From Candidatus Thermosaccharophagus tengchongensis (GTDB lineage: Bacteria > Armatimonadota > Fervidibacteria > Fervidibacterales > Thermosaccharophagaceae): a stretch of DNA of 64,000 nucleotides. The stretch lies in the NCBI GenBank assembly GCA_032161105.1, contig JAVHTD010000006.1. One strand, written 5' to 3'. This document shows, in pieces, positions 3,001 through 9,000 of the stretch. Every line of letters begins with the position of its first letter. Positions within the stretch are counted from its first letter, which is position 1. The position numbers are program-made.

Positions 3001-6000
3001 TCGCACTTGGCGATGAAGAAATACGCAATGAAGCGGCGCTCATCAAGGGGCGTAAATGAAGAGCGGTCATGCGCCATTGAAGCACCGCAAGCAACCAACC
3101 TAACTCGTGAAGTTAACCCGCGCATTGATAAGGCGCATCCGATTTGGAAGCGGTTTCGCACGCGCCATTATTAGCTATCGCTGCGTAAGCCATGAGTTCG
3201 TTTGAGCCTTTTCCAGATGAGTGCAGCTGGGAGCAATGTCAGCAATCCCCCGAGGATGTTTGAAATAGCCATCGCCAACCACGCAGCAATGGCATCATGT
3301 CCCTCAACGATGCACAGCCAATAAGTTGCGGGTATGCGCACCACCCATATTGAGAAGATGGTGATGAGAGCTGGTGAGAGCATATCGCCAGCCCCTCTCA
3401 ATGAAGCGCCGAGAATCATGCCCACAGCCGTGAATGGTTCTGCAACTGCGTTTATACGCAGATATGCGGAGACATAACGCATGGTCAACTTACCGTGCGC
3501 AAACATTTTAGCCCACATGTCCGCTGTGACAAAGAAGATACCACCGAGGACAGCCAGCATCGCAAACCCAAACACCGTCAGTTGGTAGCTGCAAGACCTT
3601 GCACGCTCAATCTGCCACGCACCCACATTCTGCCCAATCATCGTCTGAGCTGCGGAGGCAATGGCAAATGCAGGCATCAGCATGAGGGATTCAATTCTCC
3701 AACCGAGTGTAAGTGCGGCGAGTGCGTCTGTGCTGTTTGATACTCGCCCAATTATGCTGAAGAAGACAAAGGAGCAAAGCGCCCATTGAATGGATTGGAG
3801 GCACACAGGTAACGAGAGCTTTAGAAGCTGCATGTGAGACATGGAATGCCATCGCAATATGCGGTGTGGATTCAATTTGATTGGTGAGCGCCTGAGCAAA
3901 GTTCCGAGAAAAAGCAACCTCACAAGATACGATGAGACAGCGGCAATAGCAGCACCATCTATACCTAACCTCGGCACAAGCAAGGCATTCAAGCTTAACT
4001 GAGTTCCTACTCCCAATGCCGTTGCTATGAACGGCGTCACTACATCACCAAGACCGTGATAGAATGCCCCGAGCAAGAGCGCAAGCACAACTGGCACGAC
4101 GAATGTGATGAAGATGAACAGATAGCGTGTCGCAAGAACTTCAACTTCCTCACTCAAGTTGAAGATGCGCCATATGACGCCCCTGAAGAACCACACCAAT
4201 GCAATGAGCAAACTGAGCAAGAGGCACTGCTGGATAGCGGCAATTGCAACATCTCTTATTGCCTCACGGTTTCCTGCGCCCCAATTCTGCGCTACGAGAG
4301 TCACTGTGGCAGTTAGAAAAGCCATCACTACCGTAAACGGTATCCATGTGGCTTCATCTACAGCTCCAATAGCCGCAACTGCTGCATCGCCAAGCCGCTT
4401 GACGAAATACATTTCGCCAAGCCATGCTGTGGTCTGAAGGATTTGGGATGCCAATGATGGCAACGCAAGAAGCGATATAGCTTGGATGAATGTCCCACGA
4501 AGTATGATTGCTCTGCTTGTTTCATGCCGCCCCATACAGGCTCTCCCTGTGCCGCATGAGTCAACGCAAGCTTTGATGCAACGCCGTTAGCCAATGATGT
4601 GATTAAAGCGCTTCAAGGGCATCACGCAAAATTGTGACGCAAGATAACTTTCCTTAAATGGAGCGGCAAGGCGTCTCGGTCATCGCTGTTGGCGAGACCC
4701 CTGAACTTGCGGCAAGCCGAAACGAAGATAACGAACGGGTTCGGAAATTGGCGCAGCGGATTTTCACAGGCGAATCGTGGCTTCCCGTTGCTGACGGAAG
4801 GTTGATTCAGAGACTGAAGGAAAGGAATTGCGGCATTACAGTTGAACCGCAAAATCCTGACTTGTGAGTCGCCCGCTATCAGCGGGACAAATCGCAAATT
4901 TGCTTCATCGTCAACACGACAACCGAACCAATCACAGCGACAGTTAATTTGCCCAACTGGCAGCAAGCCTTTGGTTTCCCGACAATGGCGAAATTCAACT
5001 GGCAAAAGCGGTGCACGGTGGCAAAGGGCTTAAAGCTACGGTCACTGTCTCAGCTCTTGACAGTGTTTTCATTCTTAACCTCTAAACGCCAACTTAAACG
5101 CCATTGCAACGATTGCTCATCTTGCGTTACTCTAACCCCGACGAACCCGCCTTTGCTATCCCGACCCTATGGACAACCCCCTCAAGCCACCTGATGCGTT
5201 CAACCTACAGGTGGTCAAATTGCGACACATATGGACTTAATGCCAAGTGGTGGCATGCCGTCAAGGATGTCAACACCCTTAAGAGGTGACGCCATATCTC
5301 GTCCTATCCTTGATGGCACTTCGCCACGCGCCTAACTACGAACTGATTGGCTCGCTTTTGTCCTCACTGGCGATCTTTTTGTGTTCTCCTGCGCAGCATT
5401 TCCATTAGCTGCTTTGCCCTATCTACAGCCATCCGCTCTTCTTCAGATTCAGGTTGTCCCCAAGGCTGCGTTATGCGCCATGTTATTGTGCCACTTAACG
5501 GCGGCTCAGGAAATGCACCCGGGTCATAGAGCTTGTATCCTCTAAACTCAACTGGTTCCTCTTGATAGCAACACCACACTGCATGCCTAATGACCTCAGG
5601 GTCGCCCTCAAACTGCAAATCAATCAGTCGCAGCTGAGCCCTAAAGCGCTCAATGAACTCCATTGGCACATTGAACAAAAACGGGTGTGGCGCATCCGTT
5701 CCGATGATTCGCTTGCGTTCGTCAACGCCGTTGAGAAGTAATGCCTTTAATGCCTCGCCAGTTAAATGACCCTGCGATTCAGGTCCGGCAACGATAAGCC
5801 ACCTTATGTTCGGGTTAGCCACAATGTTGCAGATGATCTTCTCCAAGCCGATATTCTCGGTTTGGACTGTGCCAGCGAGTGCAGCACCTGCCTCTATCGC
5901 CACACGAACGAGCCTTTCTATCTCCTTTGGTGTTTCCTCCGGCGGACAATTCAAAATTACTGCCACAGCCACCGGTGAGTAGTCATTGCCGCGAATGTAT

Positions 6001-9000
6001 CTCCCCTCTTCGGGCGGGTAATTCGGATGCGGTGCGACTTTGTAATCCGGTCTTGGTGGCGGCTCAATCATTCGCTCCACCTCGCGTTTTTAAAACATCG
6101 GCTATCGCAGAGCATGCGAAGCTGAATCAGCTTGCATTGTCACATTGGCTTAACAGGCAACGGATGACCGCTCCCCATCGGTTCCATCAAAAAGAAGCAA
6201 CGGCTCAAGCTTCGCCTTGGAGCATCGTCATTCTTTAACCACTGTAGCGTGGATTGGTGTGATCGTAAATAGCTTGCGCTATCCCTGTGCGCTATTGTTT
6301 GAATTCGCGCGATGTGATTGCCACATATTTGACCTACGGCAGCTTCGCCATAATGCCGTTGTCGGTTCATACACCTGTGAGCTATGGGGGGATTAAAAAT
6401 GCGAGGTGTTGTTTTAGCCGGCGGGACTGGCTCAAGGCTCTACCCACTTACGAAGATAACCAACAAGCACTTGCTACCCATCTACAACAAGCCGATGATT
6501 TACTACCCAATTGAAGCGCTCGTAAAAGCCGGCATCCGTGAGATCATGCTCGTCACAGGTGGCGAATACGCAAGCGATTTTGCACGCTTACTCGGTGACG
6601 GTCGTGAAATGGGCGTCAAGACGCTTTATTACGCGTATCAGGAAAAGCCGCTCGGGATTGCACATGCGTTGAGCTTGGCTGAGGACTTCGTCAATGGCGG
6701 CAAGTGCGTCGTCTTCCTCGGTGACAATGTGATTGAAGGCAACATAATCCGACATGTTAAGCGCTTCTCCGAGCAGGAAAAGGGCGCAATGGTGCTGCTT
6801 AAGGAAGTGCCTAATCCGCAAGATTACGGTTGCCCAGTCTTTGATGGCGAGCGGATTGTGCGCATAATTGAGAAGCCAAAGGAGCCACCAAGCGAGTATG
6901 CCGTCATAGGCATTTACTTTTACGATGCCGAGGTGTTTGAAATCATCCGAGGGTTAAAACCGTCAGAGCGAGGTGAGCTTGAGATCACGGATGTCAATAA
7001 CGCATACGCCGAAAGAGGGCTGCTCTCCTACGACTTCCTTGAAGGATGGTGGGGCGATTGTGGCGCATCAATTGATGCATGGCTTTACATAAACAATCTC
7101 GTGGCAAAGACGGGCGCTAACAAAGTTGAGCTTTGACATCACAGCATGGGATAATATGCACAGCCATGGGGCGCAGCATAAGGATGCCAGAACGAGTTGG
7201 TGTAAGGAGTGGGAACATGGTGCCCAAGTTGATGCGCGTGGTTATTCCGCAAAGGCAGCTATCGTGGCTCATTGAGTTGAATGAAACCAAGACGGCAACG
7301 ATGGTGTATGAGGCGCTGCCAAAGGAGAGCAGCGTTGAAGTATGGGGCGAGGAAATTTACTTCCCTATCGGTGTTCCAAAAGGTGAGGGCGATACAACAC
7401 ATGAGTTTGTCGCTCCGGGTGATGTCGGATATTGGGAACCGGAACAATGCGTTTGCCTCTTCTTCGGTCCAACACCGGAAAGCCCGCCCGGGACAATTAA
7501 ACCAGATGACCCCGTTGTCATCATCGGGCGAATAATAAGCCCCTTTGAAAGCTTCAGGGATGTCAAGGATGGCGATAAAGTGATTGCTGTAAGGGAATTG
7601 TGAGTTACCTCATCAGATGCTCACTATGAGCCCGTTAAAAAGCGCAACGCAAACCTGTTCCCTCACTTCCCGCCTTGAAGCGCCCTCTGAAACTCGGCAG
7701 CCGGTGATGCAGGCGTGCTCGTTGGTGAAGAAGATGGGCTGCCTTGAAGCGCCCTTTGAAATTCCATTTGCAACTGCTGTGTTGCTGTAGCCTCCTTCGG
7801 CTTTGGGCTGATGCGTTTCCACGACCATACAGCACTACATATTGCTGCAACAACTGCTATTGCAACCACAGCTATGATCCCAATCGTTTTGCCCCGCATT
7901 TTCAACCACCCCTTCACTGCTTCGGACCGGAGTAGACGCGCCAATACCAGTATGGATCCTGTGATGGATCAACAGCAATCGTCTTCTTCAGCCACTTAAC
8001 ATGCCCATCAACGAAAGCAACATTGAAGCCACCACTATGCCATGCAGAGCCACCATTGCCAGTCCCAATCACTGGCACAGGACCGCTGCCGCCGCCTACC
8101 TCACTCGCCTCAGGTATAGGCCAGTTACCGCCGGGACGGCGAGGTCCATATACAACGCACCATGAATCGCCAAAGGCAATTGTCTCACCGGGGTATTTAA
8201 TTCTCGCCATGGATGTATAATTTCCGAGTTCGCCCCTATCACCCAGATCAGGACCATCGCTAAACCAGTTCATCCCGTAGCCTCCCCAAAAGCGTATGTA
8301 GCTGTCGGCAGCATTCGCACAGTTAGCATAGATGCCACCAACCACTGTCGGTCCAGCCCATGTTTCCTTACCTCTCCATCCATACGCAACTCCGGTTGGG
8401 CATGCAAACATTTGCACATTCTTCACATATGGCTGAACCAAACCCTGCCACCATATGCGCCCCGATTGACCCTGGAACCATGACTGTGTCCACATCGGGA
8501 GAAATGTTTCGTCATAGTCATTCGCATACATCAGCGCACCAAGGATTATCTGCTTCAAGTTGCTTTGGCATGATGCAGTCCTCGCCTTCTCCCTCGCCCT
8601 CGCAAACACAGGGAACAATATCGCTGCCAAGATGGCGATTATCGCTATCACCACCAGCAGCTCTATCAGCGTAAAACCTCTCCACCTCAACCTAAACATT
8701 CCAACTGCTCGCTTCATTTCGCATCCCTCCTTTGAGTTTAAAAACATCATGTGGAGATTGTAGGGCGGACGATAGTCCGCCTCACATCGTTCCTCAGTCG
8801 TGAACTCGGGCAGCTGCCCCTGCGAACTTTCACCCCATCACCTCCTTCGGTGTGAGATTGACCCCATTCAGAAAACCCAACTCCCACAACCCAACTTTGG
8901 CACGGCTTAATTTGATTGTAAAGTCTCACATTGCAATCTCATAAAACGACATCAATTGAGCAATGCATTGTTCGTAGTAAGCCACAAAGCGAAAGTGGCG

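Follow-up and report, generated by a model that had tools for sequence, protein, structure and literature searches.

The closest known proteins to the one described here are the MtrA subunit of the Na+-pumping MtrA-H system and its cytoplasmic homologues in methanogens (PF04208; 5LAA, 5L8X, 8Q3V and 9QTR), and the residues of the MtrA cobamide pocket, including the cobalt ligand His84, are numbered in PMC4915002. MtrA also occurs outside methanogenesis in the MtrAH pairs of bacteria and of archaea that are not methanogens, whose role the excerpted text of PMC9635834 calls unclear. HgcA and HgcB (NF040863 and NF040864) provide a case of a corrinoid protein encoded in or beside the ars islands of anaerobes, and ArsR-linked expression is reported for hgcAB in the extract of 10.1101/2022.10.17.512643 cited here. 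The ars accessory proteins that alter arsenic methylation, the role we propose as a putative one for the family described below, include the C-As lyase ArsI, which requires oxygen, and the arsenite methyltransferase ArsM, which requires SAM. Cobamide-based methylation and demethylation of arsenic under anoxic conditions has been described as a side reaction of MtaA/MtaB-type enzymes in methanogens: arsenic is methylated by methylcobalamin/MtaA (PMC13262295), reportedly without As(III) regulation, and anaerobic demethylation is ascribed to corrinoid-dependent methyltransferases, ArsI being oxygen-requiring (10.64898/2026.08.27.747368), as far as the extracts of these sources go. Those are metabolic enzymes, whereas the gene family analyzed here is found within ars operons.

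The g00683 gene and its product

Gene g00683 of Candidatus Thermosaccharophagus tengchongensis is an uninterrupted reading frame of 235 amino acids at positions 5364..6071 (minus strand) of a 64,000-nucleotide stretch of contig JAVHTD010000006.1, which we call the window. A ribosome-binding-like GAGGTG (6078..6083, minus strand) stands 6 nt upstream of its ATG at 6071, and an imperfect inverted repeat just 3' of the gene (5247..5327; 22-nt arms, 77%) is a putative terminator. We found no sigma-70-like promoter at the locus, where one terminator-like site scores below the shuffle mean, and three congeners share no conserved motif upstream. A single contig of a related strain in one RNA library covers positions 5282-5711 with 15 differences in 430 nt; three other RNA libraries gave no raw reads over the gene. 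The frame is under purifying selection (pN 0.085 against pS 0.77).

Residues 13-176 (5544..6035, minus strand) form the MtrA Rossmann-type domain (PF04208, E 2.4e-39), with a score of 135 against a cut-off of 25 bits that places the protein in the superfamily. It also passes NCBIfam NF002126 (183 against 161 bits), and falls below the cut-offs of TIGR01111 mtrA (127 against 249 bits) and of NF010654. The AlphaFold model (pLDDT 85.6) superimposes on 5l8x with Z 27.5 (rmsd 2.1, 171 residues aligned) and on 5laa with Z 25.6 (rmsd 1.1, 159 residues), so that the fold is held in common with the MtrA proteins (Z 25-27.5), with which sequence identity is about 35-43%. An ESM Atlas search returned MtrA clusters only, and a plasmid search just 4 matches, all distant, three of them annotated as DUF4346 proteins.

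The protein differs from MtrA in having no membrane anchor: the hydropathy maximum of residues 190-235 is -0.7, compared with 2.2 in canonical MtrA (L091/L092), and where the anchor would be there is a hydrophilic C-terminal helix (residues 210-234; 5370..5444, minus strand; DSSP on the model). This helix and an insertion after strand 1 set the family apart from MtrA, as do its variable glutamate partner of the histidine ligand and its ars context. The survey had reported no other mtr subunit, and this holds for the four that we searched in the 97.4%-complete genome: MtrH gave 0 profile matches and MtrC, MtrD and MtrE no tblastn match. The missing anchor, the missing subunits and the TIGR01111 score rule out a canonical Mtr subunit, and the absence of MtrH, both from the genome search and from the scanned neighbours of family genes, rules out an MtrAH pair. 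HgcA has a CFeSP-like fold, a membrane domain and a dedicated ferredoxin, whereas the family protein has the MtrA binding mode, which is unrelated, and lacks a constant ferredoxin partner; NF040863 was not among the NCBIfam matches of g00683 at E 0.1, nor was a membrane segment found. No sequence or fold relation to ArsI or ArsM was found. The product is a soluble relative of MtrA that probably binds vitamin B12.

The cobamide pocket

In g00683 the pocket residues listed in PMC4915002 correspond by alignment to Y25, T71, E72, N73, G75, I79, N82 and H102, so the histidine ligand and the residues that hold the nucleotide tail in MtrA are kept. His102 (codon 5766..5768, minus strand), the counterpart of His84, is present in all 81 aligned family members, as the survey had claimed, and so are T71, G75 and N82; position 25 is Y or F, and N73 is found in 78 of 81. 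E72, the partner of the histidine, is kept here and in 57 of the 81 sequences, the other 24 having Ala or Pro.

The survey had also drawn attention to Cys81 (5829..5831, minus strand), which is indeed invariant (81/81) where 5laa has Ala. It is no marker of arsenic function, however, because it is shared by several thymidylate-synthase-like fusions and by a sister clade whose loci lack acr3, arsC and arsP. That clade has both Cys81 and Cys168 (5568..5570, minus strand; Cys in 80/81 family members) without exception, which excludes either Cys81 or the pair as an arsenic-specific site, and Cys168 is further excluded by the Cys at its position in 5laa (Cys150). No arsenic-specific residue was found in the family. 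Some relatives have ferredoxin or Fe-S domains (records P0131 and P0133), which would fit a redox-cycled corrinoid.

Association of the family with ars operons

Among 80 GTDB loci, 44 have an Acr3, ArsC, ArsP or ArsM-like gene within 3 kb of the family gene; this is best taken as a recount of the survey's 41/80 and 43/80, because the locus sample is probably largely the same. By gene the 3-kb counts are Acr3 35, ArsC 20, ArsP 17, ArsR 15, ArsM-like 9 and hgcA 7, and among loci of at least 5 kb, 42 of 66 are ars-linked. The arrangement is often tight: in 33/80 loci the distance is at most 500 bp, always on the same strand, and of the 44 linked loci 32 have a same-strand ars-module gene at most 120 bp away and 19 have such genes on both flanks. 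Operon position is tightly kept while gene order is reshuffled in many ways and protein identity is about 60%. Independent samples agree. In a methanogen sample drawn evenly, 19 of 21 copies have an ars gene (Acr3, ArsC, ArsP or ArsM) no more than 1.5 kb away, and 11 of 16 loci are linked in a further sample (10/16 with acr3, arsC or arsP alone), compared with 0/63 loci of the sister MtrA clade for the latter three genes and 0/7 canonical mtrA/mtxA-type loci in the same genomes. The family is thus a recurrent member of ars clusters in bacteria and archaea, optional in oxygen-avoiding microbes, and its gene apparently forms one operon with the ars genes, with predicted co-transcription and control by ArsR.

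The neighbours include genes of organoarsenical handling: the 47 ars-positive loci contain Acr3 (40), ArsP (28), ArsE-type thioredoxin (26), ArsC (24) and ArsF (12), as well as hgcA (10). HgcB was seen in 10 loci. Also common are genes for thioredoxin, DsbD-like proteins and DGC. Among the scanned neighbours a partner of MtrH, MtaB or activator type does not recur, and URO-D-like genes occur in 2 loci only.

A separate soluble MtrA lineage of Methanosarcina (182 aa) has arsM, acr3 or arsP adjoining in 13 of 15 loci, compared with 1 of 15 for its paralogs. It is present in 38 of 59 genomes of the genus, about half of these belonging to the ars-linked subclade.

The literature matches listed, mostly outside subscription journals and without neighbourhood tables from supplements, included no paper joining MtrA homologues to ars operons, in keeping with the survey's view that the link is undescribed.

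Distribution and the orphan copy

The survey's description of the family as widespread holds in that both bacteria and archaea have it, but its occurrence is patchy and sparse: 20 of 251 genomes of the methanogen sample and 6/301 and 1/251 in two others. In the methanogen sample acr3 is present in 119 genomes, of which 17 have the family gene. ArsM is not enriched there (6/20 carriers against 54/231 non-carriers, by a lossy search), which together with the neighbour counts excludes it as an obligatory partner. HgcA is found in 15/20 carriers against 60/231 others, and each of the 20 carriers has hgcA, arsM or both; the five carriers without hgcA, and its presence in only 10 of the 47 ars-positive loci, exclude HgcAB in the same capacity. 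The ars labels on the family tree require 8 state changes, compared with 20 when shuffled, and the loci are therefore not independent. A Deltaproteobacteria-rich subclade has been kept without ars neighbours, three of its loci lying beside the selenoprotein gene tsoC.

The g00683 locus is likewise without ars genes, as the survey had conceded. Its neighbours encode a MATE transporter and an RmlA-like nucleotidyltransferase, and the gene has no ars neighbour in the window. Searches of the genome found no acr3, arsB, arsM or hgcA and no ArsR/SmtB match above cut-off, so neither adjacent ars genes nor an ArsR or acr3 elsewhere, either of which would mark an ars-operon accessory, accompanies g00683; three congeners likewise gave no acr3 match. 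Of the scattered ars-type genes noted in the survey, the ArsC-type one corresponds to an N-terminal domain of a PstB phosphate-transport ATPase; the permease of ArsP type stands amid unrelated genes. The genome also encodes AcsB, AcsC, an AcsE-type methyltransferase and an AcsV-like activator. Linkage to ars genes is seen in only 6 of the 33 loci nearest to g00683 in sequence but in 38 of the remaining 47, which upholds the earlier observation that its closest relatives are poorer in ars genes. Parsimony favours an ars-linked root (8 steps against 10), and the best reading of g00683 is as an orphan that would descend from an ars-linked ancestor; it may keep the ancestral arsenic role or may have been redeployed.

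Possible functions

The survey proposed a cobamide-dependent component of arsenic handling. Family context and pocket speak for this, while the present copy and the Deltaproteobacteria-rich subclade, both lacking ars neighbours, do not. Our leading reading, to which we give a probability of roughly 0.4, is that the family protein is a cobamide methyl carrier for methylation or demethylation of methylarsenic compounds. A soluble, His-on cobamide protein would act as an optional accessory of the ars islands of anaerobes, its corrinoid alternating between Co(I) and CH3-Co(III) and carrying a methyl group off or onto arsenic, with methyl transfer and reductive re-activation supplied by housekeeping enzymes or thiol partners and not by a dedicated operon gene. 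This arsenic chemistry is one that we infer, since a partner methyltransferase was not identified. Besides pocket and operon context, the organoarsenical neighbours, the second lineage in Methanosarcina, the ars-linked root favoured by parsimony, the relatives with Fe-S domains, the corrinoid reactions on arsenic described in the literature and the Acs proteins of this genome count in its favour. Taken singly neither direction is likely; we slightly prefer demethylation, in which the methyl group of a methylarsenical would pass to cobalt and leave As(III) for export by Acr3, and methylation of arsenic is slightly less favoured. The bolder proposal that the protein belongs to a dedicated O2-independent methylarsenic demethylase, an anaerobic counterpart of ArsI, with the MtrA fold recruited to ars islands at least twice, seems to us unlikely. 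Several observations weigh against a methyl carrier: no methyltransferase or activator partner recurs among the scanned neighbours, arsM is not enriched, the glutamate partner of the histidine varies, no arsenic-specific residue was found, the loci are not independent, and g00683 itself is an orphan. Attack of Co(I) on the methyl carbon of As(III)-methyl compounds is also chemically doubtful and counts against it.

Unlikely, though the best of the rivals, is a protective accessory that would store, shield or replace cobamide, or sustain methyl supply for methionine and SAM, while corrinoid metabolism is harmed by trivalent arsenic or other thiol-reactive metals and metalloids, co-regulated with the ars genes and having no contact with arsenic itself. 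The lack of a dedicated catalytic partner in the scanned loci, the variable glutamate, and the selection that retains the gene without ars genes both here and in the subclade with the tsoC neighbours all suit such a role, and a prediction in PMC7857596 (in the extract cited) has MtrA supplying methyl groups to the methionine synthase MesA. Yet no methionine synthase gene recurs nearby, the SAM consumer arsM is not enriched, and two MtrA lineages joined ars islands specifically while paralogs did not.

Less probable again is a low-potential redox helper, in which Co(I)/Co(II) would reduce pentavalent (methyl)arsenic, thioarsenates or the disulfides of ArsC/ArsE-type proteins with no methyl transfer. 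An ArsC-type gene lies within 500 bp in 14/80 loci, often abutting the family gene, and this reading also draws on the thioredoxin, DsbD-like and DGC neighbours, the ferredoxin and Fe-S fusions, a single LMWPc-MtrA fusion record (P0152) that may be a frameshift artefact, and the title of a paper on cob(I)alamin hydride generation. However, barely half of the ars-positive loci contain ArsC, and apart from HgcB no electron donor gene recurs. A complex prediction of an MtrA-like and an ArsC-type protein (L067 and L063) gave a score of 0.00 for chains of different organisms and without alignments, and so weighs neither for nor against.

We consider it just as improbable that the gene is a passenger with an unrelated housekeeping function, captured once by an ancestral mobile metal-resistance island and spread with the ars genes. 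The clustering of tree labels, the rarity of the gene among acr3-bearing genomes and the 27 of 33 nearest loci without ars genes within 3 kb are what it would predict; persistence of the operon position through reshuffled gene orders, and the separate Methanosarcina lineage in ars islands, are not. Finally, a partnership with HgcAB in mercury methylation or demethylation is very improbable. In its favour are the enrichment of hgcA in carriers, the presence of hgcA or arsM in all of them and the proximity of hgcA in 7/80 loci. The enrichment is confounded by kinship, however, 60 of 75 hgcA genomes lack the family gene, hgcA and acr3 are close together even where the family gene is missing, hgcAB next to ars genes was described previously (PMC7438021, in the extract cited), and hgcA is scarce in ars-positive loci and was not found in this genome.

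Implications

Anaerobic demethylation affects the speciation of arsenic in sediments and in the soils of paddies, and it is still ascribed to side reactions of metabolic methyltransferases (10.64898/2026.08.27.747368); a cobamide protein within ars operons is a candidate for a dedicated enzyme, and one that is small and soluble. MtrA has already been expressed and reconstituted (PMC4915002), and the same route is open for the family protein, while the frequency of the second lineage in Methanosarcina makes a genetic study feasible. If the methyl-carrier reading is true, it would provide the first function for soluble MtrA homologues, and bacterial "mtrA" annotations would be no sign of methane metabolism.

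The MtrA-like protein and its putative cobamide site

The MtrA-like gene g00683 is an open frame for 235 aa at window positions 5364-6071 on the minus strand, and a GAGGTG motif 6 nt upstream of its ATG favours that start over a GTG at 6080. The protein matches the PF04208 MtrA profile (E 2.4e-39) and scores above the NF002126 cut-off; it misses that of the TIGR01111 mtrA equivalog (127 vs 249 bits). Solved MtrA structures align to its AlphaFold model (pLDDT 85.6) with Z values of 24.8-27.5, and the next fold reaches 7.6. Its last 45 residues are hydrophilic, with a 19-residue hydropathy maximum of -0.7 (2.2 in canonical MtrA), and end in a helix, so the protein has no membrane anchor; the family as a whole has this fold and is soluble by sequence. 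A MATE transporter lies 830 bp downstream of the gene, and its other neighbour is a divergent RmlA-like nucleotidyltransferase. Near its 3' side is an inverted repeat with 22-nt arms (window 5247-5327); the ~730 bp at 4600-5330 hold no convincing gene, and their short protein-like plus-strand frames may be a pseudogene remnant.

The cobalamin contacts of MtrA include Tyr18, Thr53, Glu54, Asn55, Gly57, Val61, Asn64 and His84 (PMC4915002), places that in a phmmer alignment to 5laa are occupied by Y25, T71, E72, N73, G75, I79, N82 and H102, respectively. T71, G75, N82 and H102 are invariant among 81 family sequences, N73 is retained in 78, and E72 is found in only 57, giving way to Ala in 18 and Pro in 6; from this conservation we infer that the family protein is likely to bind a cobamide. 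The survey's finding that Cys81 is invariant where MtrA has Ala (Ala63 in 5laa) holds in all 81 sequences, and Cys168, the counterpart of Cys150 of 5laa, is present in 80. Neither cysteine marks the ars-linked members, since every one of 19 proteins from a sister clade (below) has Cys81 too and Cys168 has its equivalent in 5laa itself; several thymidylate-synthase-like MtrA fusions have Cys81 as well.

ars genes around the family

We examined the best 80 of 159 loci from GTDB relatives, labelling neighbours by tblastn and by neighbour clusters with Pfam and NCBIfam labels. A core ars gene (Acr3, ArsC, ArsP or ArsM-like) lies within 3 kb of the family gene in 44 of these 80 loci (three weakly labelled: L003 by an LMWPc hit, L004 by a distant ArsP-type protein and L008 by an ArsM-like one below cut-off) and within 500 bp in 33, always on the same strand. 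An ars-module gene is no more than 120 bp away in 32 of the 44 positive loci, and 19 are ars-flanked on both sides. A core gene lies within 10 kb in 47 loci, which encode Acr3 (40), ArsR (39), ArsP (28), DGC (26), ArsE-type thioredoxin (26), ArsC (24), ArsM-like protein (13), ArsF (12) and hgcA (10). Of the 33 loci nearest to our gene in sequence just 6 are ars-positive, vs 38 of the remaining 47, consistent with the weaker link seen earlier in a second sample of closest hits. The selenoprotein gene tsoC precedes three copies of a non-ars subclade (L014, L018, L048).

An evenly drawn sample of 251 genomes from the order to which G041 belongs (the source of locus L053, a genome titled Methanoregula) contains 21 family copies in 20 genomes. 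A core ars gene lies within 1.5 kb of 19 of them, both negatives being on short contigs, and of 14 of the 15 copies outside the best-80 set. Recurrent embedding in ars clusters, as the survey had proposed, is thus borne out in both sets. Among these 251 genomes hgcA (75) and arsM (60) coincide, by one search for each, in only 4 (5 with the arsM of locus L114), and 20 of 20 carriers have hgcA or arsM, a count confounded by kinship.

The sister clade (L178-L239, L251; P0126, P0127, P0129) consists of ~425-aa proteins with an MtrA domain and a Cys-rich C-terminal domain that has no Pfam match and recurs in tandem downstream; some have a TusA-like N-terminus. A metagenome scan seeded with one of them gave 79 loci, several near-duplicates, assigned to clades by C-terminal domain or score. 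It showed no link of the sister clade to acr3, arsC or arsP (0 of 63 loci; ArsM-like gene in 2), vs 10 of 16 for the short-form by-catch (any core ars gene, 11 of 16); at loci of at least 4 kb a core ars gene occurs in 2 of 36 and 9 of 11, respectively. Canonical mtrA, mtxA-type and other MtrA-fusion loci of the same archaeal genomes have ars hits within 1.5 kb in 0 of 7 cases. The family was called widespread, and it does occur in several samples, but sparsely: the phylum of G362 has it in 6 of 301 genomes and the class of G358 in 1 of 251, both counts including the seed genome. Of five new loci from the former, only one has ArsP/ArsE.

The host genome and its relatives

In the 97.4% complete host genome we found no acr3, ArsB or ArsM, no ArsR/SmtB above cut-off, and no MtrH or MtrC/D/E, as the survey had found for acr3, arsR and other mtr subunits; the scattered arsP and ArsC-type domain it listed are one ArsP-type permease and one PstB-fused domain, both away from the gene. 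The latter is a PstB phosphate-transport ATPase with an LMWPc/ArsC-like domain fused in front (contig C22; L117:7438-8595). The sole hgcA-like match is AcsC, inside a Wood-Ljungdahl cluster (contig C9, ~55,400-63,900; L119) that also encodes AcsB, an AcsE-type methyltetrahydrofolate:CFeSP methyltransferase and an AcsV-like activator (below cut-off).

Among 40 relatives, close copies of the gene occur in two congeners; one copy (L116:127-830, genome G001) is broken by a one-base frameshift, either a sequencing error or a recent pseudogene. In six other genomes the only match is a distant one of the MtrA-DUF4346 type. The three congeners yielded no acr3. Purifying selection acts on the gene (pN 0.085, pS 0.77, vs genome G002), and with no acr3, ArsB, ArsM or above-cut-off ArsR/SmtB found in the genome it is a maintained orphan. 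Four same-order genomes (G010, G008, G009, G007; L110-L113) encode a fusion of a Cys-rich N-terminus, MtrA and DUF4346; in each of the 4 extended loci an ArsR/SmtB regulator lies two genes upstream of it, and neither of the two such genomes tested yielded an acr3.

History of the family

A FastTree phylogeny built from 119 sequences (the partial L036 left out) places ars-linked loci on either side of the deepest splits in the short-form family; a subclade rich in Deltaproteobacteria has for the most part lost its ars neighbours. The labels are 45 ars-positive and 24 negative, with 12 loci too short for a call, and on them an ars-linked root is the more parsimonious (8 vs 10 steps). The label changes 8 times on the tree, whereas 1000 shuffles average 20 changes, so the loci fall well short of independence.

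A separate 182-aa soluble MtrA occurs in 38 of 59 Methanosarcina genomes (L107:9817-10362; further loci L120-L149). Among the loci obtained for 30 of its 43 matches, the subclade 81-100% identical to L107 adjoins arsM, acr3, arsP or arsC in 13 of 15, and 70-75% identical paralogs do so in 1 of 15. This lineage stands apart from our family in the tree, where backbone support is weak, which suggests a second recruitment of soluble MtrA into an ars context. The next outgroup is MtrA fused to thymidylate-synthase-like domains (P0157, P0158, P0162, P0171, P0172, P0176, P0187), some of which keep the His; these are a candidate cobamide-linked nucleotide modification system, on which our literature search found no relevant paper.

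Possible functions

By analogy with MtrA, the family protein would carry a cobamide and cycle methyl groups. We put at about 0.4 the probability that it is a cobamide methyl carrier in methylarsenic demethylation or methylation, taken together. Methylation is favoured by chemical precedent and by the arsM adjacency in Methanosarcina, and Co(I) attack on an As(III)-methyl is chemically doubtful. A review (PMC13262295) connects methylcobalamin to arsenic methylation via MtaA. We slightly prefer demethylation, because Acr3 is a constant neighbour, organoarsenical genes are frequent (ArsP is a methylarsenite exporter and ArsE an organoarsenical-resistance protein; 10.1101/2022.10.17.512643) and arsM is not enriched (6 of 20 carriers vs 54 of 231 others in the G041 order, by a search that missed the arsM visible in L114). 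ArsI requires oxygen, and anaerobic arsenic demethylation has been tied to corrinoid-dependent methyltransferases (10.64898/2026.08.27.747368); that the family is itself an anaerobic methylarsenic demethylase is doubtful.

Protection of corrinoid or methyl metabolism is an unlikely alternative, although 272 representative neighbour ORFs (single ORFs <110 aa left out) include no recurrent MtrH, MtaB-type methyltransferase or corrinoid activator. A redox helper is somewhat less probable still, although fusions to a 2x[4Fe-4S] ferredoxin or Fe-S domain exist among the relatives. We rate equally low a passenger in ars islands. In the G041 order 17 of 20 carriers have acr3, as do 102 of 231 non-carriers, and the gene is in only 17 of 119 acr3-bearing genomes; acr3 lies elsewhere in 4 of 5 genomes whose family copy has no ars neighbours. 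A partner of HgcAB is hardly credible; hgcA is in 15 of 20 carriers vs 60 of 231 others, but this difference is kin-confounded.

As the survey held, a literature search that most subscription journals and supplements lie outside turned up no publication connecting MtrA homologues to ars operons. The accessible text of PMC4915002 mentions bacterial MtrA homologues without function, PMC9635834 calls the role of MtrAH unclear, and PMC7438021 and PMC10349881 place hgcAB near ars genes, MtrA terms being absent from the accessible parts of both (related work: PMC7857596, PMC12774963, PMC2667541, 10.1101/2022.07.06.499078, 10.64898/2026.07.03.736320). The proposed undescribed cobamide-dependent component of arsenic or metalloid handling stands as to ars-operon association and pocket; cobamide carriage and chemistry are putative, and the copy in this genome is an orphan. 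For that copy an arsenic- or metalloid-related role is a little short of an even chance, and, having left the operon, it is ill suited as a test case. The feature itself is real, a known fold in an apparently unpublished context, and the family quite probably has some arsenic- or metalloid-related role.
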